From: Chitinophagales bacterium
GTDB taxonomy: Bacteria > Bacteroidota > Bacteroidia > Chitinophagales > BACL12
Direction: 5' to 3'
Assembly (NCBI GenBank): GCA_041392955.1
Contig: JAWKLB010000001.1
Span: 37,344-101,343 of the forward strand
Length of the DNA stretch: 64,000 bases
A program made the position numbers and the translations under genes. The first letter of the stretch is position 1. Every line of letters starts with the position of its first letter. Below are positions 2,625-59,942 of the stretch, piece after piece. A model generated the notes under the pieces. It was not told the DNA's origin, searched no databases, and saw only the letters and a program-made list of their open reading frames with translations.

Positions 2625-3728
2625 ATGCCACTCTATATGGACATCCACAGCGTTCCGGGCGTCAAGTCGCGGGATGTTGCTGAAGCACATCGCATGGACC
2701 TGTTGCATCAGGGGGAATATGGATGTAACTGCATGACCTACTGGATAGATGAGGATAGAGAAACCATTTTTTGTCTGATCGAGGCTACCGACAGAGATGC
2801 CGTTAAGAACATGCATAGCAAAGCGCATGGACTGGTGCCGCATAAGATCATTGAAGTGAGCAGCAATATTGTGCAATCTTTTTTGGGCAGAATATATGAC
2901 CCGGATGATGCCGTCATGGAAAATGGCCTCAAGGTATTTGCCAATCCGGGCTTTCGTGTACTCCTGATCGCAGAGACCATGGATCAAACTCTGATGCGGA
3001 GCCACCTTGGAACGGATGCAGCAAATACCTTGATCGCGACATTCAACGCTGAGGTCAGAAAGCAGTTATTGTTGCATAATGGAAGCGAAGTGGAACACCC
3101 GGGAGAAGGTTTTCTGGTTTCTTTTGCATCTGCCTCACAGGCCGTGAAATGCACCCTGGCCATTAAGGACCAATTGCCTGAAGAAGTTGCGCAATCTCTG
3201 GATCTGCATATGGCCATCAATGGTGGTGAGCCCATTGAGAAAAGCAACAATCTGTTTGGCGATGCTATACAGTTCGGACATTACTTGTGTTCTATTTTAA
3301 GCAAAGAAAGAGTGGCATTATCTGCCCAGATAAAAGAACTCGCTTCTAAAGAACTGGTGCAAAATCAGAAAGGTCGTTTGTACATATTATCGCAAGCCGA
3401 TGAAGATCTGCTGAAATTATTGTATGCTACACTCGAAGAGAAATATGCCGACCAGTATTTCGATCTCTCTGAATTTTCCCGCGCCATGGCCATGAGCCAA
3501 ACGCAGTTGTATCGCAAGCTGACCACACTCACCGGACACGCCTCCAATGCATTGTTAAAAGAATTCCGCCTGGAAAAGGCAAAGGAATTTATGCAGAAAG
3601 GAATCCATTCTATCTCTCAGGTAGCCTTTGACACAGGCTTTTCCAGTCCTTCCTATTTTACCAAATGCTTTAAGTCCAGATACGGACTCTTGCCCATGGA
3701 ATATATTGAGCTGCTGCAACGGCAGTGA
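2625..3728 (+). CDS. Transcriptional regulator: N-terminal DUF4242 domain, central degenerate class III cyclase-like domain, C-terminal AraC-type HTH
   Basis: The N-terminus MPLYMDIHSVPG...AEAHRMDLLHQGEYGCNCMTYWIDEDRETIFCLIEA...HSKAHGLVPHKIIEV is paralogous to the two downstream genes. The middle has GEGFLVSFASASQAVKCTLAIKD and GDAIQFG. The C-terminus QVAFDTGFSSPSYFTKCFKSRYGLLPMEY is an AraC HTH. Confidence 0.7.
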   Translation: MPLYMDIHSVPGVKSRDVAEAHRMDLLHQGEYGCNCMTYWIDEDRETIFCLIEATDRDAVKNMHSKAHGLVPHKIIEVSSNIVQSFLGRIYDPDDAVMENGLKVFANPGFRVLLIAETMDQTLMRSHLGTDAANTLIATFNAEVRKQLLLHNGSEVEHPGEGFLVSFASASQAVKCTLAIKDQLPEEVAQSLDLHMAINGGEPIEKSNNLFGDAIQFGHYLCSILSKERVALSAQIKELASKELVQNQKGRLYILSQADEDLLKLLYATLEEKYADQYFDLSEFSRAMAMSQTQLYRKLTTLTGHASNALLKEFRLEKAKEFMQKGIHSISQVAFDTGFSSPSYFTKCFKSRYGLLPMEYIELLQRQ

Positions 3729-3888
3729 TAGCAGAAGTATTGTACACCAAGTGTCTGCATGAATTTTACCATCCTTTGGACAGATTTTACCATGCCGGTG
3801 CCATGGAATGGTTGATTTGTTACAGCCGGGGAGCATTTCCCGCTCTTTCTTTGCTCTTACAAAAACAAACAAATCAAAATCAATAATT

Positions 3889-4173
3889 ATGAAAACGTAT
3901 TTGATCCAAAGGAATCTTCCCAATGCGGGAACCCTCACACTCGAACAAAAAATTTCCATTGCACAACGCTCCTGCGCCGTGATAGAAGAACTTGGCCATG
4001 ACCATTTGGTTTGGGACCACAGCTATATCACCGCTGATAACCTGTGGTGTGTATACCAGGCAGAAAATGAAGAAGTATTGCGTGAGCATGCGCGCCGCGG
4101 TCCTTTCCCGCTCGACAATATCTTCGAAGTGAAAGGAACTTTCAGTCCGGCAACTGCAGAATTAGTAGCATAA
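3889..4173 (+). CDS. DUF4242 domain protein (SCO4226-like), stand-alone, cytoplasmic
   Basis: I moved the start to the in-frame ATG at 3889 (MKTYLIQRNLP...), because the upstream extension is low-complexity. The sequence is about 94 aa with WDHSYITADNLWCVYQAENEEVLREHARRG and has no signal peptide. Confidence 0.65.
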   Translation: MKTYLIQRNLPNAGTLTLEQKISIAQRSCAVIEELGHDHLVWDHSYITADNLWCVYQAENEEVLREHARRGPFPLDNIFEVKGTFSPATAELVA

Positions 4174-4896: not shown

Positions 4897-4932
4897 ATGG
4901 CACCCGTTATGTCGGGTGCCATTCGTTTTTTT
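4897..4932 (+). terminator. Rho-independent terminator
   Basis: ATGGCACCCG-TTATGT-CGGGTGCCAT is a perfect 10-bp stem, followed by TCGTTTTTTT. Confidence 0.75.
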
Positions 4933-4948
4933 CATCCGCTCTTCCGCT

Positions 4949-5239
4949 CTGCAAAGTCTCCAGACTTGCAGTAATGCACAGTTCTGCAAAGTCTCCAGAC
5001 TTGCAGCACGCTCTGCTCTGCAAAGTCTCCAGACTTGCAGCACGTTCTGCTCTGCAAAGTCTCCAGACTTGCAGCACGCTCTTCCGCTCTGCAATGTCTC
5101 CGACATGCAGTAATGCACAGCTCTGCAAAGTCTCCAGACTTGCAGCACGTTCTGCTCTGCAAAGTCTCCGACTTGCAGCACCGCTCTTCCGCTCTGCAAT
5201 GTCTCCGACATGCAGAACCATTTCCTGGTCTCCGACCAG
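4949..5239 (+). repeat. Array of 8 GTCTCC-core palindromic units plus one short-stem relative
   Basis: Units start at 4949, 4984, 5018, 5052, 5089, 5123, 5157 and 5194. A short relative, CTGGTC-TCC-GACCAG, lies at 5225-5239. Linkers are drawn from three recurring sequence types. Confidence 0.9.
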
Positions 5240-5374
5240 CTTATAAAGCCTTCGGTATTATACATATTAAAGTACAAAAGCATCACACGCTTTTCATATT
5301 CTACTCCAATTGTAACATCTTTTAGTTACATTTGATATGCGCATGTAAATTCAAATTCATTAAAAAATAATATT

Positions 5375-7540: not shown

Positions 7541-7555
7541 CCCGCTCTGCACGCT

Positions 7556-7775
7556 CTGCAAAGTCTCCGACTTGCAGCAAACCGCTCTGCAGGCTCTGCT
7601 AAGTCTCCAGATTTGCAGCACTATTCCCGGGTCTCCGACCCATTTTTAACACGCACTGCAAAGTCTCCAGACTTGCAGCACGCACTACTGCTCTGCAAAG
7701 TCTCCAGACTTGCAGCGCTAATCCCGGGTCTCCGACCCATTTTTAACACGCTCTGCTATGTCTCCAGACTTGCAG
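7556..7775 (+). repeat. Composite array: 5 long GTCTCC-core units interleaved with 2 short-stem units
   Basis: Long units start at 7556, 7596, 7656, 7693 and 7753. Short GGGTC-TCC-GACCC hairpins followed by ATTTTT lie at 7629-7641 and 7726-7738. The higher-order period is 97 bp. Confidence 0.9.
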
Positions 7776-7883
7776 CATCAACCCTGTCTCTCACCCACAT
7801 TAACCATCTCCCCAAAAAAATTATCTCCAAACATTTGCGTAGTCAAATAACTACATATATATTTGTAGTCAAATAGCTACATA

Positions 7884-8207
7884 ATGAACCTCCGACGCGA
7901 TGTTTTCCAGGCCATAGCCGACCCCACCCGCCGGGCCATTCTCTTGTTGCTGGCTTCGCAAAGTATGAGTGCCGGTGCCATAGCAGCTAATTTCGATACG
8001 GCAAGGCCAACCGTCTCCAAGCACCTGCAGATACTCACGGAATGTGAACTGTTGTCGCAGGAACACAACGGCAGGGAGGTGTATTATCATTTGAACGCTC
8101 AGGGTATGAAAGAAATAGCCGACTATATAGAACCCTTCCGCATGATGTGGGAGCATAGATTTCATAAGCTGGAATCAGTCATGAAAAAATATAAACGCAA
8201 AAAATAA
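7884..8207 (+). CDS. ArsR/SmtB family transcriptional regulator
   Basis: [20 protein letters not shown]...[10 protein letters not shown] is the canonical ArsR wHTH. Confidence 0.85.
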
Positions 8208-8212
8208 AGTAT

Positions 8213-8680
8213 ATGGAACGCAAAACGCAAGTGCATGCCGAAGCGGGCAGACAGGATCTGCTGATCACACGTGTATTCGAACTTCCTGTGGATCTGTTGT
8301 ACCGCGCTTTTACGGAAGCGGATATCGTACAACAGTGGATGAACACCCATGTGATCAAACTGGAAAGTAAGACACATGGCAGCTGGCAATTTGAAACGCT
8401 GGACCCATCGGGCAATGTTGCCTTTAAAGCGAACGGGACCATACATATACTTATACCGGAAGAAAAACTGGTGCGCACCTTCGAAATGGAAAATGCTGCC
8501 TTTGGTGTGCAGTTGGAAATTCTGGAATTCAAATCCATCGATGAAAATACAAGCAGTTTGCAGATGCATTCCATTTATGAATCAGTGGAACTTCGAGATG
8601 CCATGTTGAAATTACCTTTTGCGTATGGCATAAATATGGCCCACGATCGTTTGCAGGAAATTCTTCAATCATTAAAATAA
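8213..8680 (+). CDS. SRPBCC superfamily protein (Aha1/activator of Hsp90 ATPase-like domain)
   Basis: The size, the position immediately after ArsR, and the LITRVFELPVDLLYRAFTE...WM pattern fit the Aha1_N/SRPBCC family. Confidence 0.7.
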   Translation: MERKTQVHAEAGRQDLLITRVFELPVDLLYRAFTEADIVQQWMNTHVIKLESKTHGSWQFETLDPSGNVAFKANGTIHILIPEEKLVRTFEMENAAFGVQLEILEFKSIDENTSSLQMHSIYESVELRDAMLKLPFAYGINMAHDRLQEILQSLK

Positions 8681-8684
8681 CGTT

Positions 8685-9074
8685 ATGCAAAAAAGAAACA
8701 GGATCATATATTGGATAGCCACGGTGTGGCTTTGCCTGGGCATGGTCTCGACCGGAAGTGCGCAATTACGTCATGTGCAAAAAGGTCCTGGGGCAACAGA
8801 GATGATGACACATTTGGGTTATCCTGTATATATGCTCACCATGTTGGGTCTGTTGAAAGTGGCGGCAGCGGTCGCCTTGCTTATCCCGCGCTTTCCTTTA
8901 ATAAAAGAATGGGCATATGCCGGATGTTTTTTCCTGATGTTCGGAGCAATATGGTCGCATATCGCAGTTGGGGATACCGTTGCAGAATTAATTCCTGCCT
9001 TGCTGTTAATTGTACTTACCATTGTATCTTGGTATTTCCGACCGACCAACAGAAAATTGGTCTCACCCGTATAA
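8685..9074 (+). CDS. DoxX-like membrane protein
   Basis: 129 aa with four hydrophobic segments. The pattern KVAAAVALLIPRFPLIKEWAYAGCFFLMFGAIWSHI is typical of the DoxX-like family. Confidence 0.6.
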   Translation: MQKRNRIIYWIATVWLCLGMVSTGSAQLRHVQKGPGATEMMTHLGYPVYMLTMLGLLKVAAAVALLIPRFPLIKEWAYAGCFFLMFGAIWSHIAVGDTVAELIPALLLIVLTIVSWYFRPTNRKLVSPV

Positions 9075-9085
9075 AAAATACAGAA

Positions 9086-9643
9086 ATGAAAAAAGAATTA
9101 TCCGCAAAAGATCGCGACGCCCTGATAGAAATAGTACACAGGCGTTTTGCCAAACATATGCACAGGCATAAAGGCATAACATGGGATGATGTGCTGGTCA
9201 GACTGGAAAAAAATCCGAAAGCAATCCACGCTTTACAGGCTATGGAAGAAACTGGCGGAGAGCCGGATGTGATAGAAAGAGATAAAAAAACCGGTGCGAT
9301 CGTATTTTATGATTGCGCAGAGGAAAGTCCGAAGGGCAGACGTAGTTATTGTTATGATTATGAGGCCCTGATGTCGCGCAAAGAGCACAAACCCAAACAC
9401 AGTGCATTGGAGGCTGCTGCTGAAATGGGGATAGAATTATTGGATGAGGAGCAATACAAGTTTTTGCAGCAATTCGGTCCTTTCGACAATAAAACTTCCA
9501 GTTGGGTAAGAACACCGGATGCCGTTCGCGAGCTCGGCGGAGCCATTTTCGGTGATTGCCGTTTCGGTCGCATTTTCATCTACCACAACGGCGCCGAATC
9601 GTATTATGCAGCAAGAGGTTTCAGGGGGAGATTGGTGGTGTGA
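9086..9643 (+). CDS. DUF4256 domain protein
   Basis: I moved the start to the in-frame ATG at 9086 (MKKELSAKDRDALIE...). The long ORF-track extension (8711) overlaps the DoxX gene. Motifs GGEPDVI...YDCAEESPKGRRSYCYD and TSSWVRTP are present. Confidence 0.6.
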   Translation: MKKELSAKDRDALIEIVHRRFAKHMHRHKGITWDDVLVRLEKNPKAIHALQAMEETGGEPDVIERDKKTGAIVFYDCAEESPKGRRSYCYDYEALMSRKEHKPKHSALEAAAEMGIELLDEEQYKFLQQFGPFDNKTSSWVRTPDAVRELGGAIFGDCRFGRIFIYHNGAESYYAARGFRGRLVV

Positions 9644-9765
9644 AGAAATGAAAAATGAAAAATGAAAGATGAAAAATGAAAAATGAAAAATGTCCGCCGG
9701 TAGGCGGATCACCCGTAGGGTGGAAAGATGAAAAATGAAAGAGGAAAAATGAAATCGGTAATCAC
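9644..9765 (+). repeat. Period-7 array (AAAAATG)n interrupted by a conserved GC-rich double hairpin
   Basis: There are 7 heptamers at 9644-9692. TCCGCC-GGTA-GGCGGA lies at 9693-9708 and CACCC-GTA-GGGTG at 9710-9722. Six more heptamers lie at 9724-9765. The 37-nt core recurs at 59832-59868. Confidence 0.85.
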
Positions 9766-9804
9766 ATATCGTTGCAGGACGTAGCATTGCGTCACTTATA
9801 CAAA

Positions 9805-9960
9805 AATGAGGAATTAGGAATGATCCGTAACAATAACAAATAGTCCCTCTGCGCCCTCAGCGAAGAACTCTGCGATTTGCCTCCCGCAGGGACGGCACAC
9901 TGCGTGAAATTTAGGAATTAGGTCCGAAGGACCCCTTAGGGGAATAATGAATAAGGAATT
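9805..9960 (+). repeat. Mosaic intergenic segment: GGAATTA-type heptamers plus mini-hairpin pair GGTCC-GAA-GGACC / CCCC-TTA-GGGG
   Basis: Heptamers AATGAGG AATTAGG AATGATC start at about 9805. Hairpins lie at 9921-9933 and 9932-9942. The same stem pair occurs inverted at 23472-23492. Confidence 0.6.
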
Positions 9961-10023
9961 TCCTGGTGTACCTTTGTGCTGATTCTGTCATAGCGGCCTC
10001 GCCGGATACAAATGAAATGATGT

Positions 10024-10602
10024 ATGAACCCTAAAGCAAATTTCTTCTTCGATAAACCGACGCAGTGGCAAAAAGAATATGCCAAAATGCGCAGCATCGC
10101 ACTGGATTGTAATTTGGTGGAAGATGTAAAATGGGGTTGTCCCTGCTATACCCTCAACGGTAAAAACATAGTTCTTATTCATGGCTTCAAAGAATATTGC
10201 GCCTACTTGTTCTTTAAAGGTGCTTTACTCAAAGACACCGATAAGCTTCTGATCCAGCAGACTAAAAATGTGCAATCACCCAGGCAGATCCGCTTCACGA
10301 ACCTTAAACAGATCAAAGAGCTGGAAAAAGTACTGAAGACATATATTTTTCAGGCGATAGAAGTGGAAAAAGCCGGATTGAAAGTTGTATTAAAAGAACC
10401 CGAAGCTTTCGACATGGCGGAAGAATTTGAAATACAGCTGAGCAAAAGTGCAAAGCTCAAAAAAGCATTCTATGCATTGACTCCCGGCCGCCAGCGTGCC
10501 TATCTGCTGCATTTCTCCCAACCCAAGCAGGCAAAGACGCGGGAAGCCAGAGTGCAGAAGTGCATTCCGGCAATTATGCAAGGGCGGGGTTTGAATGATT
10601 GA
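10024..10602 (+). CDS. YdeI/OmpD-associated (DUF1801-related) family protein
   Basis: WQKEYAKMRSIALDCNLVEDVKWGCPCYTLNGKNIVLIHGFKEYCAYLFFKGALLKD, plus a C-terminal segment LTPGRQRAYLLHFSQPKQAKTREARVQKCIPAI, is typical of the family. Confidence 0.6.
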   Translation: MNPKANFFFDKPTQWQKEYAKMRSIALDCNLVEDVKWGCPCYTLNGKNIVLIHGFKEYCAYLFFKGALLKDTDKLLIQQTKNVQSPRQIRFTNLKQIKELEKVLKTYIFQAIEVEKAGLKVVLKEPEAFDMAEEFEIQLSKSAKLKKAFYALTPGRQRAYLLHFSQPKQAKTREARVQKCIPAIMQGRGLND

Positions 10603-10685
10603 TACTCCTTCAATAATTTTAACAGGTAAGATGGAAGGGTAAAGTACGCACGGCGTTTAGCCCATTTCCTTTTAATGGACAAATA

Positions 10686-10952
10686 ATGAAAACAGTAGTT
10701 ATCGGAGAATCATCCGGCGCAAGCATGGAAAAAATAATGGAAGTGTATCCGCGCCACAAAGCGGTTGCCGAAAAATTCATCGCCATGGGGGTAGTGATCG
10801 GCATCGGGCGCTTCAGTGGCTCCGGCAATATGGCCATTTTCAAAACACGGGAAGCGGCTGAGCAATTTGTGCGCGAAGATCCTTTTATTTTGGAAGGGCT
10901 TGTAGGTTCTTTCGTTATCCGCGATTGGATGGATGAGTTGATACCGGAATAA
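10686..10952 (+). CDS. YciI-like small protein
   Basis: 88 aa. The C-terminal FVREDPFILEGLVGSFVIRDW resembles the YciI-family signature (DPF...G). Confidence 0.5.
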   Translation: MKTVVIGESSGASMEKIMEVYPRHKAVAEKFIAMGVVIGIGRFSGSGNMAIFKTREAAEQFVREDPFILEGLVGSFVIRDWMDELIPE

Positions 10953-14204: not shown

Positions 14205-16883
14205 TTATTGTACCACAATTCGACTATTAAATTCTCCTTGATTAGGTATTAGAACATGAATTAGATATATCCCTGCCGGAAGGTTTGCACAAGAAAAAGC
14301 ATAGAAGCTACCCGAAAACTTTTGTTCTTGTATGGTTTTCCCATCTAAACCTGTCAATTGAAATATGGCGTTGTCAACATAGCAATTAAGCTGCATTTTT
14401 GCCAATCCACCGGTTGGATTCGGAGAAATTGAAATTTCCAATGGCGCATTGTCGTTGATATTAACTTGCGGTAGGTAAATAAGTGTCTTGGCGGTATCAG
14501 TAAGTATGGGAGCGTTATAATCGAAAATAATGGATGCGCTATTTTCGATAAAATCGCCTGGAGCCAGATCCGACCTTGTCCTAATTTCATATACGAGATA
14601 GCCATGGCTACCCGCTTCATCTATATCAGCATATGGTAGTTTAATATTAGAAAAATCGAAAATCAGATTGTTAGCTGCATCCAGTGCGAAATAAGTGATA
14701 GTGTCTGATACAGCTTTAATGGTAATGCTTTCAACTATAAGGCCTTCCGGTAATGTATTTTGCAAGCGCACAAAGAAAGCTGTATCTGTTCCTGTATTTT
14801 GAAAATTTATAGTATATTCTAAGAGCGGATTGGAAGGTAGATCATTAAAGGATAACAATTCTTTATCCACATAAATGTTATTTGGATCGAAAGAACTTGT
14901 AATTAGTACAGAGACTGTATCAAAATTGCATTCAGGACCTGCATCATCTATTATAGGGTCTATTTTAAAATGGGAAACGGCATAAGTGGAATCAAAAGGT
15001 GCATCTTCATTTACTGTTACGAACAAAATGTAAACCCCTCCTTCAAATGGGTCAAGGACGGGAGTTTCCCAGACAATGGAATCCTCGCTGAGCAGGTCTG
15101 GACTGACAGTGCAAGAATCATAAGTGATATATTCAGAAGGATAGAATGTTATGGTTCCTGGTAGGGTAGTGGTACCCATATTAAAATAATACATTCCATA
15201 GCATGCTGTAAATCCCGGTCGGAAAGGGGTCAGTGCGAACGCATCAATACATAGATCATTAAAATCTCCGTAGGGCTGATAAACAAAGGATTTTCCAGTA
15301 TCCACGTTTCCAAACGCTCCATATGTATTTGAATAAGAGGATGGAACAAGGTCATAATACATTAAGGCTGGTGCAGAAACTATATATGTGCCCGTTTCAG
15401 GGATGCCAAGTGTATAGCTGCCATCTGCTTTTGATAATGTGATCGAGCCGGATGTTTCATCCTGTATCAGCATATTGATCCAATAAAAGTCATCTCCATC
15501 AATAATTCCATTTGCATCAAAGTCTACTCCGATATCTCCTTGTACAAGATTGAGATCGTGCGATATCTTCACGATCCAAATATCATCTCCTCCATGAGAT
15601 GTTACCGTTTTATTCCCGTTCAATAATGAACCAGAAGTGCCGCATAGCACATAAGCATAATCATTTGTTTGTACAACGTCTGCTAATTGATCGTCATTTG
15701 TTCCGCCAAAGGTGATATCCTGTAAAATATTCCCAAGTGGGTCTAATTCAACAAACCAATAGTCGTAATCTCCGAAAGAGGCTTCAGTTTTATCGGCAAA
15801 TATTCCTGAGCTGGATTCGCCGGCCAATAAATAGTTGCCATCTATTGTTTGAATCGCATGATATAGACGTTCATTTTGATCAGCCCCTATGGTATTTTGC
15901 CACTGTATGTGTCCGTAAGGATCTAATTTGACTACCCAGTAATCAAAAAGTCCAATACTGGCTTCAGTTTTATTGCCATTAATTCCGGAAGCTGAATATC
16001 CAACTAATAAAAAGCCATTGTCAAAAGTTTGTATTATATCCGATAAATAGTCATTTACATTTCCGCCAAAATCTTTTTGCCAAATACTATTTCCTTCCGC
16101 ATTAATTTTAGTTATATAATAGTCTATTCCACCAATTTGATCTGCTTCTTTTAAACAGTTAATATCAGAATCTGAGCTTCCACCAATAAGATATCCACCA
16201 TCTGACGTAGATATAATACATCTGCCCCAATCGTTTGAAAATCCTCCCATCTCTTTTTGCCAGATAATATCGCCAGTTTCATCAATTTTAATATACCAAT
16301 AATCCGGGTACGGCAAAGGCGGAAAGCAGTTTTCTACCGTTTTGTTACCGGAAATCAGGGAACCGGATTCACCCATTAAAATATACCCACCACCATAAGC
16401 GGGTGCAATCTGATAAAGATAGTCTTCTTCGTCTCCGCCATAACTACGGTCCCAAAGCACCTCTCCATCATTATCCAGTTTAACTAACCAATAATCAAAA
16501 CTTCCGTACAAAACAGCGGTTTTATCATATGCGGGGGCTGAGGATGAATAACCACCAACCAAATAGCCACCATCTTCGGTTTGTATGATACATGTTGCAT
16601 AGTCGTAACCGGCAGCACCAATAGTATTCTCCCAAATCAAATTTCCGTCGGGATCTGTTTTAATTATCCAGTAATCGTAAAATCCTAAACTATTCTCCGA
16701 TTTCTCGAAACCTGCTGATGAAGCTGAGTATGCTGCGATAAGGATATTTCCATTTGTATCAACTATGGCTTTGCTTATTACATCATCATAATTACCTCCA
16801 ATCGCTTTTTGCCATAGCACAGTTTGAGCATGTGTATGTAAACATAGTATATAAATAAAAGTAAAAAGTAATGGTAGTTTCAT
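14205..16883 (-). CDS. T9SS-secreted repeat (propeller-like) protein, paralogue of 5375-7540
   Basis: It has a signal peptide and about 8 repeats of DGGY.L.G.S.S......KT....G..DYW.VKLD..G...W. A central SFDPNNIYVDKE segment resembles a DUF11-like conserved repeat region. The C-terminus ISISPNPTGGLAKMQL...IYLIHV is a type-A sorting domain. Confidence 0.8.
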   Translation of the reverse strand: MKLPLLFTFIYILCLHTHAQTVLWQKAIGGNYDDVISKAIVDTNGNILIAAYSASSAGFEKSENSLGFYDYWIIKTDPDGNLIWENTIGAAGYDYATCIIQTEDGGYLVGGYSSSAPAYDKTAVLYGSFDYWLVKLDNDGEVLWDRSYGGDEEDYLYQIAPAYGGGYILMGESGSLISGNKTVENCFPPLPYPDYWYIKIDETGDIIWQKEMGGFSNDWGRCIISTSDGGYLIGGSSDSDINCLKEADQIGGIDYYITKINAEGNSIWQKDFGGNVNDYLSDIIQTFDNGFLLVGYSASGINGNKTEASIGLFDYWVVKLDPYGHIQWQNTIGADQNERLYHAIQTIDGNYLLAGESSSGIFADKTEASFGDYDYWFVELDPLGNILQDITFGGTNDDQLADVVQTNDYAYVLCGTSGSLLNGNKTVTSHGGDDIWIVKISHDLNLVQGDIGVDFDANGIIDGDDFYWINMLIQDETSGSITLSKADGSYTLGIPETGTYIVSAPALMYYDLVPSSYSNTYGAFGNVDTGKSFVYQPYGDFNDLCIDAFALTPFRPGFTACYGMYYFNMGTTTLPGTITFYPSEYITYDSCTVSPDLLSEDSIVWETPVLDPFEGGVYILFVTVNEDAPFDSTYAVSHFKIDPIIDDAGPECNFDTVSVLITSSFDPNNIYVDKELLSFNDLPSNPLLEYTINFQNTGTDTAFFVRLQNTLPEGLIVESITIKAVSDTITYFALDAANNLIFDFSNIKLPYADIDEAGSHGYLVYEIRTRSDLAPGDFIENSASIIFDYNAPILTDTAKTLIYLPQVNINDNAPLEISISPNPTGGLAKMQLNCYVDNAIFQLTGLDGKTIQEQKFSGSFYAFSCANLPAGIYLIHVLIPNQGEFNSRIVVQ

Positions 16884-19942: not shown

Positions 19943-19949
19943 TCCCGCT

Positions 19950-20049
19950 CTGCAAAGTCTCCAGACTTGCAGAACTTTATTCAGGTCTCCGACCTGCATG
20001 CTCTGCAAAATCTCCAGACTTGCATAACCTTATTCAGTTCTCCGACCGT
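19950..20049 (+). repeat. Two long plus two short GTCTCC-core palindromic units
   Basis: Long units lie at 19950-19972 and 20003-20025. The short unit CAGGTC-TCC-GACCTG lies at 19982-19996. A degenerate unit CAGTTC-TCC-GACCG lies at 20035-20049. Confidence 0.85.
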
Positions 20050-20056
20050 TCCTTAA

Positions 20057-22120: not shown

Positions 22121-23293
22121 ATGCAATTTTTACCTTTGTATGGATATATGCCAGGCTACACAGGACCCGAAGACATATTATATATTTCCGGAATAGTATT
22201 ATCTCTCTTCCTTTCTTTTATTTTATTTTCTAAAAATAAAAAGACGACGCCCGATATCATCCTCGGGATATGGCTGTTGGTTTCCGGTGCCGATCTGTTC
22301 ACCTTCTTTTTATTTTTTACCGGTGCATATACGCACATGCCCGCTGTTACGGCGCTTGGTTTCCCTATGCCACTCCTGCAGGGACCCTTCTTATTTTTAT
22401 ATACAAAGTATCAAACCGGAAACAATGCTTTTCGCAGGAAGGACCTTTTGCATTTTGCACCGGCTTTGTGTTCCCTTCTGATGTTTTTCCCTTTTTATTT
22501 GCTTTCATATGCCGATCAGGTAAGGGTGTTTCAGGAAGAAGGGAAAGGATATATGGTGCAGATGTCGGTCAATGTGATCGCCATTATGGTATCCGGCGTA
22601 ATATATATTGTTTTGTCGATGCGGCGCTTGCTTTCTTTTCGCAAAAAGATCGTCGATCGCTTTTCCAATACGGATAAGATCCGTTTCAACTGGTTATTAT
22701 ATCTTATTATTGGTATTGCATGTATTTGGGTCGTGATCCTGTTCGTAGGAGAGGACCACTTGATCTTTGCTTCTTCGGCATTATTTATTTTATGGCTTGG
22801 GTATTACGGTATTAAGCAATCACAGGTGTTTAATCAGCATGCCGAGGTGGACTGGACCTATTTTACAACGAGCCAAGACCATGTGCAGGAAAATGAGATG
22901 GATGGATCCGAGCACACTAAGGTAAAATACAGCCGTTCTGCGCTCCAGGCAGAAGAGGCAATCAGGATACACAATGCGCTGCAAAAACGGATGGCGGAGC
23001 AAAAACCGTTTACGGATCCGGAACTCACGCTCGATGCACTTGCAGCCATCTTACAGGTACAACCCGACCACCTGTCGCAGGTGATCAACAGCCTGGAAGG
23101 AAAAAATTTCTACGATTATATCAATACCCTGCGGGTAGAAGAGTTCCTGCGCAAAACGCAGAATGGGGATGACATCCGTTATACCTTGCTTGCACTCGCA
23201 TTCGACTGCGGGTTCAATTCAAAGGCATCCTTCAACAGGAACTTTAAGAAGATCATGGGCACCTCGCCGAGTATGTATTTGAATAAAGGTTAG
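22121..23293 (+). CDS. Membrane-anchored AraC family transcriptional regulator
   Basis: The N-terminal half has about 6 TM segments. The C-terminus LLALAFDCGFNSKASFNRNFKKIMGTSPSMY is an AraC HTH. Confidence 0.8.
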   Translation: MQFLPLYGYMPGYTGPEDILYISGIVLSLFLSFILFSKNKKTTPDIILGIWLLVSGADLFTFFLFFTGAYTHMPAVTALGFPMPLLQGPFLFLYTKYQTGNNAFRRKDLLHFAPALCSLLMFFPFYLLSYADQVRVFQEEGKGYMVQMSVNVIAIMVSGVIYIVLSMRRLLSFRKKIVDRFSNTDKIRFNWLLYLIIGIACIWVVILFVGEDHLIFASSALFILWLGYYGIKQSQVFNQHAEVDWTYFTTSQDHVQENEMDGSEHTKVKYSRSALQAEEAIRIHNALQKRMAEQKPFTDPELTLDALAAILQVQPDHLSQVINSLEGKNFYDYINTLRVEEFLRKTQNGDDIRYTLLALAFDCGFNSKASFNRNFKKIMGTSPSMYLNKG

Positions 23294-23510
23294 GGGTTAA
23301 GGGTTAGGGGTTAAGAGTTATGGGTTAGGTGTTAGGGCCGTTATTGTCCATAGTACTTACTTTATGTCAGACTGTGACTGCGACTGCGACTGAGACTGGA
23401 CCATTGGTCATGAGGGAAAGATAATTGTTTAAAGCACTGCCTTCACATGCAGGCAGACATTCACCACTCACCCCCAAAGGGGTCCAAAGGACATTCACCA
23501 TTCACCATTT
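23288..23510 (+). repeat. Mosaic intergenic element: telomere-like (GGTTAGG)7, AGTACT anchor, (GACTGY)5, mini-hairpin pair, (CATTCAC)n
   Basis: GGTTAGG GGTTAAG GGTTAGG GGTTAAG AGTTATG GGTTAGG TGTTAGG lies at 23288-23336 and contains the AraC stop codon. AGTACT lies at 23352-23357. GACTGTGACTGCGACTGCGACTGAGACTG lies at 23369-23397. CCCC-AAA-GGGG and GTCC-AAA-GGAC lie at 23472-23492. Confidence 0.85.
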
Positions 23511-47309: not shown

Positions 47310-47605
47310 AATTCAATGTATCCGGATCAAAAACGATCAATACGGACTTATGTTGTACAAGGTATGCAATTAATGTAAAGAATAAAAAGTGCGGCGTCTC
47401 TTGAATGGAAAATGGCGCATGGTTGAAAAGTGAAGTCCCATTTTATAGCCGGTGAGCTGAACTCACTAATCCTGATTCCGCAAGAAGTCGCGGTTACATC
47501 TCCTTTAAATAATTAGTAATGATATTTAAATCGGCCCTGACCTTCCTAAGAGTCCTTTGGACTTTACCATTTCAAGTTATGTCTACCAATAACGACGAAC
47601 AAACG

Positions 47606-47825
47606 CACTATAGAAATTCCCCCTTGACCAGCCCACACACCCTGACCCCTGACCTTTTCTCAATACATAAAACAATAATAACCATCTAACTCACTACAGA
47701 AATTCATTCTTGAATAGGATGCACACCCTGACCCCTGACCTTCTCACAATACATAAAACAATAACAACCATCTAACTCACTATAGAAATTCCCCCTTGAA
47801 TAGGATGCACACCCTGACCCCTTTA
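47606..47825 (+). repeat. 86-bp tandem repeat, 2.5 copies, abutting the stop codon of the tail-fibre-like gene
   Basis: Units lie at 47606-47691, 47692-47777 and 47778-47825 (truncated). Each contains CACCCTGACCCCTGACC. Confidence 0.9.
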
Positions 47826-50800
47826 TTACTTACTTATCACCATCTGTTTCGTTGCAACCACTTTACCATCCACAACCAATGAATACGCATACGTACCACT
47901 TGCCATATTGCCGGATTCTATAACCAGATGTGTTTCATCACACGCGATCGGAATAACGGTGATCACTTTGCCTTCAGCACTGTTCACGATCATGATGCTT
48001 GCATCTCTGCAATCTTTGGGAATACGGAATGGTATCATAGTGGTATTATCAAATGGATTTGGAATATTCTGACCCAATAATGCATTTTCAGGATCAGCAG
48101 CCGAAACGCTTATGATGCCGTCATTGAGTTTTGCATCGGAGGCCTGCGCACTGAGTTCGGCTATTTGTGCCTTTAATGCCTCAATTTCTTTTTGCTGTTC
48201 TTCCAACTGTTCATTTTGCGCAGTGTTTACTGAATCTAATTCCTGTGCAGCTTTTACCAGTGGCACCACAAATTCCGCGTAACGCAATCCGTATAAATTA
48301 TTTTCATTTTGCGGTTTGTCCACTCCGGAAAAATCATAACCGATCTGCTGTGCTGCTTTCTCCACATCCTGCGCAATAAAGCCGGTATAAGTGATCTGTG
48401 CCTTTGCATCCAATGCTTTTTTATTGATCTGTTGAGTAACCTTGTCTTCGGAATAAATGCTGTCGCTTAGGATGCGATCCTCTTCCAGATGTCCGCTTAA
48501 AGCTTCCATTTTTAATGTATATGTTACCGGTTGAAGCAATTTGATGAACTCCAATCCCGGTACATCTTCCTGCACATTCTCTTTCATTCTTTCATCACTG
48601 ATATTTGTCCAGCCTGCATATCCGCCGATACTGGTCACTGAGCTATTCCCGATACGCACCTGATTGTCGGCATCGGTCCTTGCATTATAGCCAAGTGCTG
48701 TACTGTTGGTGAGTGAGAATGCGCCGTTATTTGCCGCATAACATCCCAGATACGTGCAGTTCGTATTGAAACTGTAAGAGCTGCCCGTTGACAATCCGAT
48801 ACCAATATTATATGAACCGGTGGTGTTGAATTCCAGAGCACCATTCCCCAGGGCAACCTTATTATGACCGGTGCTGTTATAATATAATGCCGACGCGCCA
48901 ACAGCGACATCAAACCCGCCGCTGGTATTAGAGTACAAGGCAGATGATCCCACACCTGTATTGGAACCTCCGTTGACGTTGCTGTACAAAGTGCGATATC
49001 CTATTGCTGTATTAATGGAACCGGTATTGGTGTATAAACTTTGATATCCTATCGCAGTATTATTCGAACCATTCGTATTGGAGTAAGATGCATTAAACCC
49101 GATGGCCGTATTGAACCATCCGTTATTATTCAGATAACTCGCACGGATACCCATAGCTGTATTGTATGAACCATTCACATTACTGTATAGTGTGGAGTAA
49201 CCAACGGCGGTATTTCCTGCGCCGGTAGTATTGCTGTATAAACTCTGACTTCCAATGGCAGTAAATTCATTTCCTGTTGTTGAACTGTATAAGGCATTTA
49301 CGCCCAATGCAGTAATTCCAATCCCGGTTGTATTATTATATGCTGCATAAGAGCCAACACCCGTGTTGCTGTCGCCGGTAGTATTGCTGCGCATGCTGTG
49401 GTCGCCGATCGCAGTATTACCATCACCATCTGTATTGTTATACATGGAAAATAAACCCATGGCCGTATTTGAATTTCCCGTTTGATTGGAATAGAGTGCA
49501 GATGAACCAAATGCTGCATTGAACGATCCGGTAGTGTTTAATTGCAGTGCCGAGTTTCCTGTGGCTGTATTGGAACTCCCGGTGGTATTTGTATACATGG
49601 CACGAAAACCTATTGCAGTATTCAGATCGGCCGTTGAATGATATAATGCCTCACTACCAACGGCAGTGGAATATGAATTTCCGGCTAAAGTGTAAGAAGC
49701 TTTATGGCCTATTGCCGTGTTATTGGTTCCGGTGGTGAGATTAAATAACGTAGAATCCCCCACGGCAACATTGTAGGTGGAAGTCCCGGCGTTGTATAAA
49801 CTATAACTTCCCACGGCTGTGTTATTCCAACCATATACACTGGTAGATAAAGCATATGCGCCGAGAGCTGTATTAAATTGTCCGCTCGCATTTTCTTTCA
49901 GGGAATAGGAACCAACGGCGGTATTGTATGAACCGATGCCATTGCTGTACATCGACAGGGCACCGATGGCCACATTTTCATTTCCGCCATGCGTATTATA
50001 CATGGAAAAAGTGCCGAAGGCGCTGTTGTTATTACCATCTTCATTTAAATACAGCACATCTTTACCCATACCGGTATTATTTGAACCTCCAACATTATTA
50101 TATAATGCCTCAGCACCCACGCCAACATTATTCAAGCCGGTGGTATTTGAATACATGGCATGACTTCCTATTGCTGTATTCTGACTACCCGTTGTGTTTA
50201 CCCACAAACTGGCATTTCCTACCGCGACATTTTCACTACCACTTGTATTATAGAGCATGGCCCATTCACCCAATGCAGTATTTTCATTTCCGTCTATATT
50301 GAATCCGAGTGCCGACAATCCAACAGCAGTATTCAGGGATCCCGTAGTATTGGTTTGCAAACTTCCGCTGCCTACTGCGGTATTGGAGTATCCTGTAGTA
50401 TTGGCATACATAGCATTTGATCCGATGGCCGTATTATAGTATGCAGTTTGATTAGCACGCAATGCCTGACTGCCTAAAGCGGTATTTTCTTCTCCTGTTG
50501 TATTATACCACATACTCTCATTTCCCACCGCGACATTATCATTGCCCGTTGTATTGTACGTCATGGCATTTTGCCCGATCGCAGTATTTCTATTGCCCAT
50601 TGTATTGAAAGCCAGTGTGGAAATACCAACGGCAGTATTCAGAGAACCGGCAGTATTATATTCCATGGAGCCACTCCCGACGGCAGTATTGGAATAACCA
50701 TCTACGTTATCGCGTAATGCGTCCGAACCTACTGCTGTGAGATAATAATGTGTTTCATTTGTTTTCAATGCATTATTTCCAATGGCTGTATTGCTGCCTC

Positions 50801-51788
50801 CGGTTGTGTTGTTGAGCATTGCAGAACTCCCCACTGCCACATTACTGCTTCCTGTTGTATTATTATAAAATGCAGAATCTCCTGCAGCAAGATTGTCTGT
50901 GCCGGAATTCCCCAAAGCGATACCTGCTCCGATAAATATATTTTGTGACCCCTGATTGGAAATAAATCGTTTATTATCCAGAAATACATATCCGTCGAGA
51001 TACAGATCCTTCCATGTATTTACCGTGCTTCCTAAACTATACGTAAAGGTGGTATTTGGAACAAGTGATTGATTGATCGCTGTTGCGCTCAGGTTAGATA
51101 AACTTGTATTCGCACCGCCACCACCACCTGCAACAGTGGTCCAGGATAAAATACCTGCGCCGTTCGTTGTCAGTACCTGTCCGCTTGTACCGTCCGCTGC
51201 CGGTAATACCCAAATGAAATTTGCAGCGATATTATCTGCTGCCTTGAAACCGGTATAATTATTTCCGTTCGCCGCTAATTCATTGAATCGCAATTCACCT
51301 GTTGCTCCGGCCAGCACATCGTAAGGTTTAATGCGGATGGCTCCGGGCACAGTGGGTGTGATATCTATCATGGCTCCCGGTGTTGCGGTGGAGCCGAGAG
51401 ATAATTTATTTTTGATATAGGCATTGCCGCCGGCTGTCGACCAGAAAACAGGTGCTCCCGTTCCGTCGCGGAACTCATACCGCGAATTCGTGTTGCTGAA
51501 AACCAAACCATAATTCGGATTTCCGGAATAGCGGAAAGCATAATGATCACCAGCAACCAAAAAATCGGCGTTGCCGCTGAAACTCAGATCGCCATCGAGT
51601 CCAAAAGCCGAATGATCGGCACCGGTTCCGAATTGGGAAATGCCACCTTCTACCTGCAAAAGAGTGGATGGCGTCACGGTTCCTACGCCCACATTTCCAC
51701 TGGCAGGAAATGTATTTGTTTGTGCACCAAGGAACAGCGGCGAGATAAAAAGGAAAACACTACATAAGCGGCGGAGCATTTTTTTCAT
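47826..51788 (-). CDS. Tail-fibre-domain adhesin-like protein: signal peptide, about 900 aa of NTA.G repeats, S74-type intramolecular chaperone domain, coiled coil, T9SS sorting domain
   Basis: The start is set at the Met giving MKKMLRRLCSVFLFISPLFLGAQT. There are dozens of roughly 14-aa repeats (NTAVG..AL..NTTG..). The motif GGYAGWTNISDERMKENV...YTGFIAQDVEKA...YGLRYAEFVVPLVKAAQEL matches the phage tailspike chaperone domain. The C-terminus QNIPNPFDNTTMIPF...GTYAYSLVVDG is a T9SS CTD. Confidence 0.8.
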   Translation of the reverse strand: MKKMLRRLCSVFLFISPLFLGAQTNTFPASGNVGVGTVTPSTLLQVEGGISQFGTGADHSAFGLDGDLSFSGNADFLVAGDHYAFRYSGNPNYGLVFSNTNSRYEFRDGTGAPVFWSTAGGNAYIKNKLSLGSTATPGAMIDITPTVPGAIRIKPYDVLAGATGELRFNELAANGNNYTGFKAADNIAANFIWVLPAADGTSGQVLTTNGAGILSWTTVAGGGGGANTSLSNLSATAINQSLVPNTTFTYSLGSTVNTWKDLYLDGYVFLDNKRFISNQGSQNIFIGAGIALGNSGTDNLAAGDSAFYNNTTGSSNVAVGSSAMLNNTTGGSNTAIGNNALKTNETHYYLTAVGSDALRDNVDGYSNTAVGSGSMEYNTAGSLNTAVGISTLAFNTMGNRNTAIGQNAMTYNTTGNDNVAVGNESMWYNTTGEENTALGSQALRANQTAYYNTAIGSNAMYANTTGYSNTAVGSGSLQTNTTGSLNTAVGLSALGFNIDGNENTALGEWAMLYNTSGSENVAVGNASLWVNTTGSQNTAIGSHAMYSNTTGLNNVGVGAEALYNNVGGSNNTGMGKDVLYLNEDGNNNSAFGTFSMYNTHGGNENVAIGALSMYSNGIGSYNTAVGSYSLKENASGQFNTALGAYALSTSVYGWNNTAVGSYSLYNAGTSTYNVAVGDSTLFNLTTGTNNTAIGHKASYTLAGNSYSTAVGSEALYHSTADLNTAIGFRAMYTNTTGSSNTATGNSALQLNTTGSFNAAFGSSALYSNQTGNSNTAMGLFSMYNNTDGDGNTAIGDHSMRSNTTGDSNTGVGSYAAYNNTTGIGITALGVNALYSSTTGNEFTAIGSQSLYSNTTGAGNTAVGYSTLYSNVNGSYNTAMGIRASYLNNNGWFNTAIGFNASYSNTNGSNNTAIGYQSLYTNTGSINTAIGYRTLYSNVNGGSNTGVGSSALYSNTSGGFDVAVGASALYYNSTGHNKVALGNGALEFNTTGSYNIGIGLSTGSSYSFNTNCTYLGCYAANNGAFSLTNSTALGYNARTDADNQVRIGNSSVTSIGGYAGWTNISDERMKENVQEDVPGLEFIKLLQPVTYTLKMEALSGHLEEDRILSDSIYSEDKVTQQINKKALDAKAQITYTGFIAQDVEKAAQQIGYDFSGVDKPQNENNLYGLRYAEFVVPLVKAAQELDSVNTAQNEQLEEQQKEIEALKAQIAELSAQASDAKLNDGIISVSAADPENALLGQNIPNPFDNTTMIPFRIPKDCRDASIMIVNSAEGKVITVIPIACDETHLVIESGNMASGTYAYSLVVDGKVVATKQMVISK

Positions 51789-51929
51789 AATCATGATTTT
51801 TGTGCATTGCATAATAGAATAAGGACAAACACAAAAATATCCGCCCGCTCAGAGCCATGAAATACCCGAATCCGAGTATGGGAAGGTTAGGGCTGGGGCA
51901 GGAGCAGGGGAAGTCACAGTCACAGTCGG

Positions 51930-52160
51930 ACTCAATTATGAGCTCTTATTGTTTAAAAAAGTACTGCCCTGACCAATGACTTCTGACCCCTAACCCTTGT
52001 CATATCGCAGCAGCAGCCCAACTCAATTATGTATACTTATCCTTTTAAAAAGTACTGCCCTGACCCCTGACCCTTGTCATATCGCAGCAGCAGCCCAACT
52101 CAATTATGTGCACTTATCCTTTTAAAAAGTACTGCCCTGACCCCTGACTCCTCTCACCTT
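51930..52160 (+). repeat. Tandem repeat (91, 77 and about 61 bp units) upstream of the tail-fibre-like gene
   Basis: Units start at 51930, 52021 and 52098 with ACTCAATTATG...AAAAAGTACTGCCCTGACC... Units 1 and 2 differ in length by 14 nt, i.e. two heptamers. Confidence 0.9.
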
Positions 52161-52203: not shown

Positions 52204-52236
52204 CGGCCCTAACCCCTAACCCCAACCCCTAACATT
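52204..52236 (+). repeat. C-rich telomere-like heptamer array (CCCTAAC type)
   Basis: The sequence is CGGCCCTAACCCCTAACCCCAACCCCTAACA. The junction CGGCCCTAAC is shared with the inverted array at 23321-23340. Confidence 0.85.
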
Positions 52237-59500: not shown

Positions 59501-59816
59501 TTCAAAGAATTCGGCAACCATAAACCTTACATCCAGTTGTAAGTTATCAGATGAGAACACTCCGGAACTGTCCATATTCCCGAACCCGGCATCCAATGAT
59601 CTGTATGTGCAACTGCATGGTATACCATCTGCACAAGATGCATGGGTCTCCATGTATAACGCTATAGGAGAATTGGTATACTCCGGTCAAACAGAGGTGA
59701 ACAACGGAGAGCTGGATCTGTATCTCAACGTATCTGCATTTGTGCCCGCTTCAAATTATTTCATACGCATAGAAGCCGGCGGAAACGTATATACCGGACA
59801 GTGGACGAAGCAGTGA
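56532..59816 (+). CDS. T9SS-secreted SBBP-type beta-propeller repeat protein with MopE-like metal-binding motifs and two Ig-like modules
   Basis: The start is at ATG 56532 (MNHTQRSLLVLLCLLPSLIWA). It has repeats of YFGGSG.D.G..V.VD..GN.Y..G.T.S..FPTT, and DGDGYG...CNDLDDDCD three times. The module FCKGDHVTLNAN...YQWKRNGNIIPGA is shared with 5375-7540. The C-terminus LSIFPNPASNDLYVQL is a T9SS CTD. Confidence 0.8.
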   Translation: MNHTQRSLLVLLCLLPSLIWANQNTISENSVSGNSSAVFIENNGQITHPDGSAASEVLYTLRTAGLQVFVYKNGLSYQLSAKGDQVDHSAMLPGIDADLADMVVHASERTVRFNVILENANMLARVEALENTPYVEQYFTAKDQNQIRAGSCKKLIVHDIYPGIDWVLYVRDNTIKYDFIVAPGSDPAQIRFLVEGADAISTPQKDILQYSTTLGDVRDAHLSCSLQEDNMPVDASFIVEQQVVRFDVADYDRKKTLVIDPELEWSTFYGGEGEDAINGITISQDGFLYFTGYTHSSTNMAYLGYQMTYGGGNFDMYFVKMDTLGNRIWGTYFGGSEGDYGTGVNVDIDGNLLVSGFSYSPDFPTTPGAFQTAFGGNIDGVLIKATTDGEILFATLFGGSGVEYMRSVSSDSEGNIYIGGSASSDSLGYGASAHQIYVGGLSDECLVKFDSDGNRIWATYLGGTGDDYSRAVGVDLEDNVYLGGIATSANGIWFGVGYDSTWFNNNDGTVAKFDTAGTLLWSTYYGGNGDDNVNGLAFDEHNNVYVAMQAGSKNGLAYNGYLNFGFGKVDAVLIKFKPDGIREWATYYGGSFEDMGKAVAVYQDRVYLVGHSYSSFGVAVGGYQNYLVGFGDAMIVRFDTTGAFYWGSYAGGYDVDYGRGVAVSSEGTIYMGGKTFSYTFPTTDGAYQEVFGGDPADGFIQKISECPGTWYYFDYDGDGYGNSFFPVFACSPPLGYVLNDGDCNDFLASIHPGAAEICNDLDDDCDFLVDSDDPDAVGEPIWYFDGDADGYGDVNNTTAACEVPALYVADSTDCNDTMNTIYPGATEVCNGLDDDCDAMVDEDVIVAAITAGGPTTFCKGDHVTLNANTGVGYLYQWKRNGNIIPGAITGSYATNKGGNYTVDVTLPGGCADLSDITTVTVLTKPSANIVAMNDTDICVLGYCKLKTNSSPGFTYQWFWYGSPIPGATNNILNAIFTGPHYVRVTNASGCSKNSATINLTSSCKLSDENTPELSIFPNPASNDLYVQLHGIPSAQDAWVSMYNAIGELVYSGQTEVNNGELDLYLNVSAFVPASNYFIRIEAGGNVYTGQWTKQ

Positions 59817-59831
59817 TGGGAAAGGAATAAG

Positions 59832-59909
59832 AAATGTCCGCCGGTAGGCGGACCACCCGTAGGGTGGAGGAATCAGTAATCAGTAATCAGTAATAAGTAA
59901 TAGTTAATA
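59832..59909 (+). repeat. Second copy of the GC-rich double hairpin, followed by (AGTAATC)6
   Basis: AAATGTCCGCCGGTAGGCGGACCACCCGTAGGGTGGA lies at 59832-59868 and has one substitution versus 9688-9724. Heptamers AGGAATC AGTAATC AGTAATC AGTAATA AGTAATA GTTAATA lie at 59868-59909. Confidence 0.85.
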
Positions 59910-59942
59910 CTTCATTTGACAATAAGATTTATCATTCTTATA

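Follow-up and report, generated by a model that had tools for sequence, protein, structure and literature searches.

Small dispersed repeats (SDR1 to SDR8), several of which form hairpins, were reportedly described by Elhai in 2008 in Nostoc punctiforme and other cyanobacteria, whose genomes are said to be rich in tandem heptamers. Single-strand transposition by insertion sequences of the IS200/IS605 type, and the miniature derivatives of these elements, the palindrome-associated transposable elements (PATEs), are known from the work of Ton-Hoang, Barabas, Chandler and colleagues. In the portion of PMC4390886 that cites Elhai 2008, SDR5 is called a 'repeat module', and its 'precise insertion' at a short target is noted, and the SDR literature is also taken up in the portion of PMC3116915 that cites Elhai 2008. 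A repetitive extragenic palindromic (REP) element is described as a short extragenic stem-loop with a stem of 6-13 base pairs (bp) and a short loop (PMC3733652), a description that also fits the element reported here. Intergenic tandem heptamers (STRR or LSSR) such as TAACTGA are found in Cyanobacteria, Beggiatoaceae and some Bacteroidetes, TAACTGA itself being reported as abundant between the genes of Beggiatoaceae, Cyanobacteria and five Bacteroidetes (PMC4679880). Tandem heptamer repeats are likewise treated by Mrazek et al. 2007, to the extent that this work is summarised in PMC4679880. In this study we analysed 64,000 nucleotides (nt) of a Chitinophagales bacterium (assembly GCA_041392955.1, contig JAWKLB010000001.1, positions 37,344 to 101,343 of the forward strand), referred to below as the window, and we describe in it a 31-nt GC-rich double hairpin, referred to as the module, that interrupts heptamer arrays in phase at two loci.

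The module consists of hairpin A, TCCGCC-GGTA-GGCGGA (16 nt), and hairpin B, [T/C]CACCC-GTA-GGGTGG (15 nt), which together make up exactly 31 nt, and its two copies lie about 50 kb apart in the same orientation:

9693-9723, plus strand: module copy 1, with hairpin A at 9693-9708 and hairpin B, TCACCC-GTA-GGGTGG with an outer T.G pair, at 9709-9723; established by sequence, pattern match, folds and phase test, with 55.7 bits against covariance model R1.

59837-59867, plus strand: module copy 2, with hairpin A at 59837-59852 and hairpin B, CCACCC-GTA-GGGTGG with an outer C-G pair, at 59853-59867; established by sequence, pattern match, folds and phase test, with 56.4 bits against covariance model R1.

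In copy 1 the core of hairpin B, CACCC-GTA-GGGTG, occupies 9710-9722, with one T before it and one G after it. The first-pass annotation of this DNA had laid out locus 1 (9644-9765, with its hairpins and heptamers) in a way that agrees with our direct reading, and the 37-mer that it placed at 59832-59868, 16 nt past the TGA stop at 59814-59816 and with a single T-to-C change, is indeed there. It had taken this change to add a C-G pair to the second stem. That pairing can form in stem B, or, alternatively, a G-C pair can be added to stem A. Both copies are intergenic and fold as two adjacent hairpins with stems of 6 bp (A) and 5-6 bp (B) and loops of 4 nt and 3 nt, and the motif GTAGG is present in each of the two hairpins. 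The predicted RNA folding energies are -19.9 kcal/mol for copy 1 and -21.5 kcal/mol for copy 2 (z of -4.5 and -3.8), the DNA folds have a z of about -5 on either strand, and the flanking arrays have no structure in the fold predictions.

When the window was searched over its 64 kb on both strands, which is the scope of the counts given here, a 32-mer with up to 3 mismatches gave exactly 2 matches, both on the plus strand, and 100 shuffles expect 0.00. In a repeat search of the window the two loci paired over 43 nt at 93% identity, and the longest exact stretch common to both copies was 21 nt. When the copies were aligned with 100 nt on either side, the similarity ended about 6 nt beyond the module, and outside it the resemblance was one of A-rich periodicity alone; the two copies therefore do not belong to a longer duplicated stretch, and the check for a recently duplicated larger segment that the first-pass annotation had proposed came out negative. 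These data support the conclusion that the GC-rich double hairpin is genuinely a dispersed repeat and no accident of a microsatellite, as had been proposed, with the two matches found against 0.00 expected and with the unrelated flanks of the two copies.

The sequences on either side of the two copies are period-7 arrays, identified here with TRF and the junction test described below:

9641-9692, plus strand: left heptamer array of locus 1, (TGAAAAA)n, with period 7, 7.3 copies and 93% matches in TRF; its first unit supplies the TGA stop of the upstream DUF4256 gene.

9724-9765, plus strand: right array of locus 1, AAAGATG AAAAATG AAAGAGG AAAAATG AAATCGG TAATCAC, of which the last two units are degenerate; TRF and phase test.

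59817-59836, plus strand: left heptamers of locus 2, degenerate TGGGAAA GGAATAA GAAATG, directly after the stop codon; read from the sequence.

59868-59909, plus strand: right array of locus 2, AGGAATC AGTAATC AGTAATC AGTAATA AGTAATA GTTAATA; TRF 59871-59901, period 7, 4.4 copies.

The seven heptamers at 9644-9692 are AGAAATG, two AAAAATG, AAAGATG and three AAAAATG. When the 31 nt were deleted in silico, locus 1 read AGAAATG AAAAATG AAAAATG AAAGATG AAAAATG AAAAATG AAAAATG ^ AAAGATG AAAAATG AAAGAGG AAAAATG and locus 2 read TGGGAAA GGAATAA GAAATG^A GGAATCA GTAATCA GTAATCA GTAATAA, where ^ is the excision point. We scored this with a junction test, in which lag-7 and lag-14 identities are counted across the excision point out of 21, and the 31-nt excision scored 19/21 at locus 1 and 16/21 at locus 2, whereas excision lengths that fall in other phase classes averaged 4-9/21. 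The two copies have the junction AAATG^TCC...GGTGG^A in common, the boundary is ambiguous by no more than 1 nt (a G), and no target duplication exceeds this length. Since the array is in phase after excision of the 31 nt, both sides are one interrupted array, which was a pre-existing insertion site. The arrays are thus the site in which the module sits and not exchangeable parts of the element.

These results change several details of the earlier description. The proper unit is 31 nt and not 37 nt, the additional AAATG and A of the 37-mer being heptamer bases, and what had been given as (AGTAATC)6 downstream of copy 2 is really two perfect AGTAATC units (59875-59888) and four degenerate ones. 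The flank of copy 2, which had been regarded as different, reads after excision as one degenerate array family (GGAATAA GAAATGA GGAATCA GTAATCA...). The view of a core combined with exchangeable 7-nt arrays is not supported in that form either, because excision restores an in-phase array at both loci and because hairpin-free arrays are frequent: most of the 16 period-7 arrays of the window hold no hairpin. The explanation that we favour, with slightly better than even confidence, is that the 31-nt module is a miniature non-autonomous dispersed palindromic repeat of the SDR or REP kind that was inserted next to AAATG in pre-existing arrays.

The simplest alternative to insertion is homology-driven copying between similar arrays, in which a single event, an ectopic gene conversion or a template switch from one A-rich array to another, copied a palindrome that had arisen locally, so that there would be exactly two copies and no mobility. 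The left flanks of the two copies agree at 9/11 positions (AATGAAAAATG vs AATAAGAAATG) and both arrays are GNAATNA-like, which would supply microhomology; the documented copies are two, and no transposase was found nearby. The similarity of the right flanks, however, stops after 1 nt. Also, array homology alone is insufficient to explain a second family of double hairpins which nests in heptamers in the same manner but in opposite orientations and in unrelated heptamers (CATTCAC vs AGGAATT), and we consider the copying explanation quite unlikely. The members of this second, 20-nt family are:

9923-9942, plus strand: TCC-GAA-GGA / CCCC-TTA-GGGG, in phase in an (AGGAATT/GGAATAA) array of the intergenic region that also holds module copy 1; pattern and phase test.

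23472-23491, minus strand: TCC-TTT-GGA / CCCC-TTT-GGGG as read on the minus strand, in phase in a (CATTCAC)n array; pattern and phase test.

The pattern GTCCnnnGGACCCCnnnGGGG (TCC-nnn-GGA/CCCC-nnn-GGGG) occurs once per strand, at 9922-9942 on the plus strand and at 23472-23492 on the minus strand, and the chance expectation is about 5e-4 in 128 kb. In the junction test the member at 9923-9942 scored 14-15/21 and the member at 23472-23491 scored 19/21 at the best boundaries. The stems of the two members are identical, whereas their loops differ (GAA/TTA vs TTT/TTT) and their orientations are opposite. The member at 9923-9942 and the 31-nt module have the outer frame TCC...GGA-C...GG in common, and covariance model R1 aligned with the 20-nt family through the outer pairs TCC...GGA and C...G at a non-significant 10.2 bits (E about 2); a common origin of the two families is only a suggestion that the sequences make. 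Over the whole window, 6 adjacent GC-rich double hairpins were observed vs 0.4 in shuffles.

Another hairpin repeat of the window, GCTCTGCAAAGTCTCC(A)GACTTGCAGCAC, is about 34 nt long, abundant and arranged in tandem arrays at 889-1065, 4935-5240, 7541-7790 and 19945-20050. Its arrays start 1-20 nt past plus-strand stop codons, with the exception of the array at 4935-5240, which starts about 105 nt past the stop at 4828, a terminator-like hairpin (4900-4932) lying in between. The core hairpin of this repeat, GTC-TCC(A)-GAC, occurs 21 times in the window on the plus strand and zero times on the minus strand, and its stem extensions vary in a compensatory manner (AAGTC/GACTT vs ATGTC/GACAT, GGGTC/GACCC and CAGGTC/GACCTG). 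Judged by these features it looks like a separate family resembling REPs and the bacterial interspersed mosaic elements (BIMEs) that they form. It gave no match in viral contigs or in the loci of relatives.

With respect to the genes around the two copies, the DUF4256 gene upstream of copy 1 has its TGA stop at 9641-9643, and its 185-aa product is identical to MEZ5012693.1 from a metagenome-assembled genome (MAG) of a Chitinophagales bacterium. The gene upstream of copy 2, which has its stop at 59814-59816 and lies downstream of rplM-rpsI-rpsB-tsf, encodes a 1100-aa protein with a sorting tail of the type IX secretion system (T9SS). Copy 1 begins 50 nt and copy 2 begins 20 nt past the stop of the respective upstream gene, both in sense orientation, and at copy 2 a GH92 gene on the minus strand runs towards the module. 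The only open reading frame (ORF) across copy 1 was rejected as spurious, being antisense, overlapping the 3' end of DUF4256 and made of translated heptamers. The minus-strand translation of the module (LSTLRVIRLPADI in the context FHFSFF) had no match among 5.8 billion predicted proteins.

This location leads to a different explanation, namely that the module is a selected RNA 3'-end element whose hairpins, in the 3' untranslated region of the upstream gene, stop 3'-to-5' exonucleases or terminate transcription, and that the identity of the copies reflects function. Hairpins of REPs and BIMEs act in this way in E. coli mRNAs. The sense orientation of both copies just past plus-strand stops is what such an element would show, and so is a fold that is strong and isolated between unstructured arrays. 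In addition, a terminator scan flagged both loci, on the minus strand alone, where hairpin A is followed by CATTTTTCATT or CATTTCTTATT, and the GH92 gene heads towards the one at copy 2. An A-rich left flank is what produces the minus-strand call at the two loci, and at copy 1 the 4.5 kb upstream of this 'terminator' hold no minus-strand gene. An intrinsic terminator on the sense strand was rejected as there is no U-tract after the hairpins on the plus strand at either copy, though canonical hairpin-plus-U terminators do exist in this lineage (4900-4932 in the window and 14470-14510 in L005, a locus of a relative). Furthermore, the related 20-nt family is found in both orientations and away from stop codons, the syntenic spacers of relatives function without the module (a plain 99 nt in one, L009, and a hairpin-plus-U in L005), no Rfam family matches, and the in-phase interruption of the arrays is left unexplained. 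A 3'-end element of this kind is for these reasons a credible but unlikely account of the module.

The proposal that the module is a double-stranded site bound by a nucleoid protein or regulator, or else a small RNA gene in its own right, fares less well and is highly improbable in our judgement. Two adjacent short palindromes with a common GTAGG could each bind a dimeric protein, and weak sub-threshold PrrB/RsmZ-like matches are present at both loci. These matches lie at 9663-9799 and 59798-59917, both on the plus strand, and score 10.2 and 11.7 bits vs a gathering score of 44; they are almost certainly a compositional effect of GGA- and A-rich repeats in the periodic flanks. MacGregor is said to have proposed in 2015 that CsrA-like proteins bind heptamer repeats. 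The whole window gave 0 matches to Rfam 15 at gathering thresholds, and in permissive mode the best scores in the two intergenic regions were 10-16 bits vs cut-offs of 40-50 (E of 1.8-7.8), so that the Rfam check suggested in the first-pass annotation returned no family for the core at either threshold. No promoter-like site was found in either intergenic region, the flanking genes are functionally unrelated (DUF4256/DUF1801 at locus 1 vs the T9SS protein/GH92 at locus 2), and an operator would not be expected to lie downstream of genes.

Copies of the module were also sought outside the window. The central 22-mer GGTAGGCGGANCACCCGTAGGG, searched in genome and metagenome contigs, gave one chance match, in GC-rich coding-like sequence of Myxococcales without hairpin context; these public contig scans did not return the window itself and are therefore silent on the copy number of the module in this genome. 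A 29-nt pattern had no match in viral contigs, plasmid sequences gave chance matches only (E about 3), and phage sequences gave none. A search with R1, covering the window with filters off and also L005-L009, found no further significant copy. Exact look-up of window proteins led to only two short Logan contigs of SRR28338156, and the GH92 protein gave no match. The two contigs are exact substrings of the window, which shows that this independent assembly holds the same strain, L003 corresponding to 7859-9677 and L004 to 9708-10913; L003 stops inside the left heptamer array and L004 restarts at the last base of hairpin A. Since the exact match between the copies, 21 nt at most, falls below the k of 31, this break hints at further similar sequences or at a drop in coverage at the hairpin.

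The nearest genomes that were compared have about 80% EF-Ts identity, and they keep the order LemA, Zn-peptidase, rplM, rpsI, rpsB, tsf, T9SS protein, GH92 and ROK. The spacer between the T9SS-protein and GH92 genes is 265 nt in the window, where it holds copy 2, vs 99 nt of plain sequence in L009, and in L005 the T9SS gene is followed by an ordinary hairpin-plus-U terminator and an extra Lactamase_B gene splits the spacer into two. Neither heptamer arrays nor the module were found in the syntenic spacers of L009 and L005; therefore, both are lineage-specific additions and the 265-nt spacer is a lineage-specific expansion. Within the clade, heptamer arrays have a patchy distribution. Each of four further loci, about 20 kb long (L010-L013), has none except one 2.1-copy CCAATTT array within an annotated TerC-family gene, and L005 has, in its intergenic region 3497-3960, five different heptamer arrays beside a 9-bp GC-rich hairpin, TTCGCTCGC-AAA-GCGAGCGAA. 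The (AGGAGAG)n array in that region has 6.7 copies in L005 (3497-3543) vs 7.7 in L006 (3491-3544), these being two MAGs of one related Chitinophagales species, which is direct evidence that heptamer arrays vary in length between strains.

In the window itself TRF found 16 period-7 arrays in 64 kb with at least 10 different units (TGAAAAA, GGTTAGG, ATTCACC, CCCTGAC, CCCTAAC, AATCAGT and others). All lie outside likely coding sequences except AAAAGTA at 16857-16871, which is inside the annotated ORF 14205-16883. Since most heptamer units of the window include a stop codon, an array is closed by stops in each of its three reading frames. The stop codons of the DUF4256 gene (TGA, 9641-9643) and of an AraC-type gene at 22121-23293 (TAG, 23291-23293) are inside the first unit of the array that follows, and arrays thus abut coding sequence without a spacer. 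In the array at 9644-9692 each AAAAATG unit supplies an AUG in an A-rich context and then an in-frame UGA (AUG AAA AAU GAA AAA UGA, or MKNEK*), and if transcribed this array would present a series of overlapping mini-ORFs in the kind of leader-like setting that Bacteroidota use in place of Shine-Dalgarno sequences. Arrays of GGGTTAG/GGGTTAA (complement CCCTAAC), which are telomere-repeat-like, lie at 23288-23337 on the plus strand and, C-rich on the plus strand, at 52207-52233 and 59964-60014, and with at least 4 G-runs they could form G-quadruplexes on the G-rich strand. TCAGTAA, a cyclic permutation of the AGTAATC at 59875-59888, has 1 mismatch to the reverse complement of TAACTGA. Longer tandem repeats, at 47566-47822 (86 nt, 3 copies) and 51914-52159 (77 nt, 2-3 copies), flank both ends of a gene at 47826-51812 that encodes 1328 aa with a Peptidase_S74 / endosialidase-chaperone domain, and each unit of these repeats ends with the heptamer doublet CCCTGAC-CCCTGAC.

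As to how a miniature repeat could have been inserted next to AAATG at both loci, the module would have moved as DNA, in the form of a folded single strand. Its pair of similar GTAGG-bearing hairpins may be recognised by a dimeric hairpin-binding enzyme, for example an HUH/Y1 transposase of the RAYT or IS200/IS605 type, which would insert 3' of a short target without duplication. An enzyme of this type would fit because the GTAGG hairpins are similar, the target is a fixed pentanucleotide without duplication, and both copies are on the plus strand, the probable template of lagging-strand synthesis given that the cumulative GC skew rises over most of the window. The copies on this template would be in the orientation preferred by transposition of single-stranded DNA, which with 2 copies only is a weak fit. 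Alternatively, the module may have spread by homology-driven template switching between arrays. Heptamer arrays could be a suitable habitat in that they are non-coding, are prone to slippage, which makes them single-stranded for a time, and contain the target motif over and over. Effects on RNA, such as protection of the 3' end of the upstream mRNA or a block to antisense transcription, would be secondary.

Several observations weigh against the explanation that we favour. Two copies alone were seen in the window, and two copies could stem from a single gene-conversion event. No transposase, RAYT, Y1_Tnp or tnpA was found among the 60 window ORFs scanned against Pfam, and the nearest relatives, at the EF-Ts identity given above, are too distant to supply an empty-site allele. 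The terminal GTAG/CGTC tag of classical REPs is absent from the module, and between target and hairpin foot no linker is left that could act as a guide of the IS200/IS605 type. Finally, both copies are 20-50 nt past a stop and in sense orientation, as a selected 3'-untranslated element would show. A broader possibility, which is speculative and decidedly improbable, is that the 31-nt and 20-nt double hairpins are minimal substrates of an insertion machinery that depends on hairpins in single-stranded DNA and targets heptamer microsatellites, and that the same machinery is perhaps present in heptamer-rich Cyanobacteria (with their SDRs), Beggiatoaceae and some Bacteroidota. If this is true, a cross-phylum comparison could reveal how 'very small mobile elements' move. 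On this reading the hairpins might, in addition, themselves favour the local slippage by which the arrays are built.

We know of no explanation, since the cyanobacterial description of 2008, of how very small dispersed repeats nested in heptamer arrays spread. In this Chitinophagales genome, GC-rich hairpin modules of at least two families interrupt period-7 arrays cleanly and in phase, which suggests that the phenomenon extends beyond cyanobacteria and offers an independent lineage in which to seek the responsible enzyme and empty and filled alleles. There is also a practical side: short-read assemblies break at such modules and arrays, as the Logan contigs that end here show, and the modules and arrays can be mistaken for small RNAs or terminators. 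With two copies and no mechanism this is a modest, descriptive result.

When the module is compared with known systems, the intergenic heptamer repeats (STRR/LSSR) resemble the arrays that flank it, being of period 7, intergenic, of many unit sequences and variable in copy number between strains, as in L005 vs L006. They are, however, the habitat and not the hairpin module, and no embedded GC-rich hairpins are reported in PMC4679880. Rho-independent terminators are resembled on the minus strand only, where the GC-rich hairpin is followed by a T-rich run, and at copy 1 no gene is placed to use it. With its two copies the module would be consistent with the elements of the IS200/IS605 type and the PATEs in having a hairpin at each end of the unit, in its insertion directly 3' of a short target (here AAATG) without duplication and in the probable lagging-strand template of both copies, but it is an order of magnitude below known functional ends in size, it leaves 0 nt for a guide tetranucleotide and no tnpA was found in the window. 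The likeness is mechanistic only.

The REPs, BIMEs and REPINs, whose transposase RAYT is also called TnpA_REP (PMC3733652, PMC3116915), are closer, being like the module short GC-rich extragenic stem-loops, here with 6-bp stems and loops of 3-4 nt. REPs resemble the module too in standing alone or as closely spaced pairs, in many cases a short way downstream of a gene, in being able to fold in single-stranded DNA or mRNA, and in tolerating G-T pairing, as in the T/C variant. They differ in that the GTAG/CGTC tag of REPs stands at the end of the stem-loop, whereas hairpin A is flanked by AATG and [T/C]CAC and hairpin B by GCGGA and AAAG/AGGA, the reverse complements being without the tag as well, and the GTAG of the module is inside the loop and the 3' arm alone. 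Moreover, two different hairpins placed head-to-tail are rare for REPs, and the module is nested in heptamer arrays. REPs are further marked by a high genomic copy number and an associated RAYT gene, whereas the 64-kb window showed 2 copies of the module and no RAYT among its scanned ORFs.

The likeness is greatest with the SDRs, which like the module are very small dispersed intergenic repeats with precise insertion in short contexts and no obvious transposase, and which occur as near-identical copies at unrelated loci, the module being nested in phase at AAATG^ at both of its own. The SDRs are cyanobacterial and reported to be 21-27 nt long, whereas the module is from Bacteroidota (Chitinophagales), has 31 nt in two tandem hairpins and has two documented copies. 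Our best reading, in which the module is likened to the descriptions of SDRs and not to their sequences, is that it would behave like REP elements and closer still to the cyanobacterial SDRs. Most likely it is therefore one more family among the small dispersed hairpin repeats already known, found in this case in Bacteroidota and nesting in microsatellites of heptamers.

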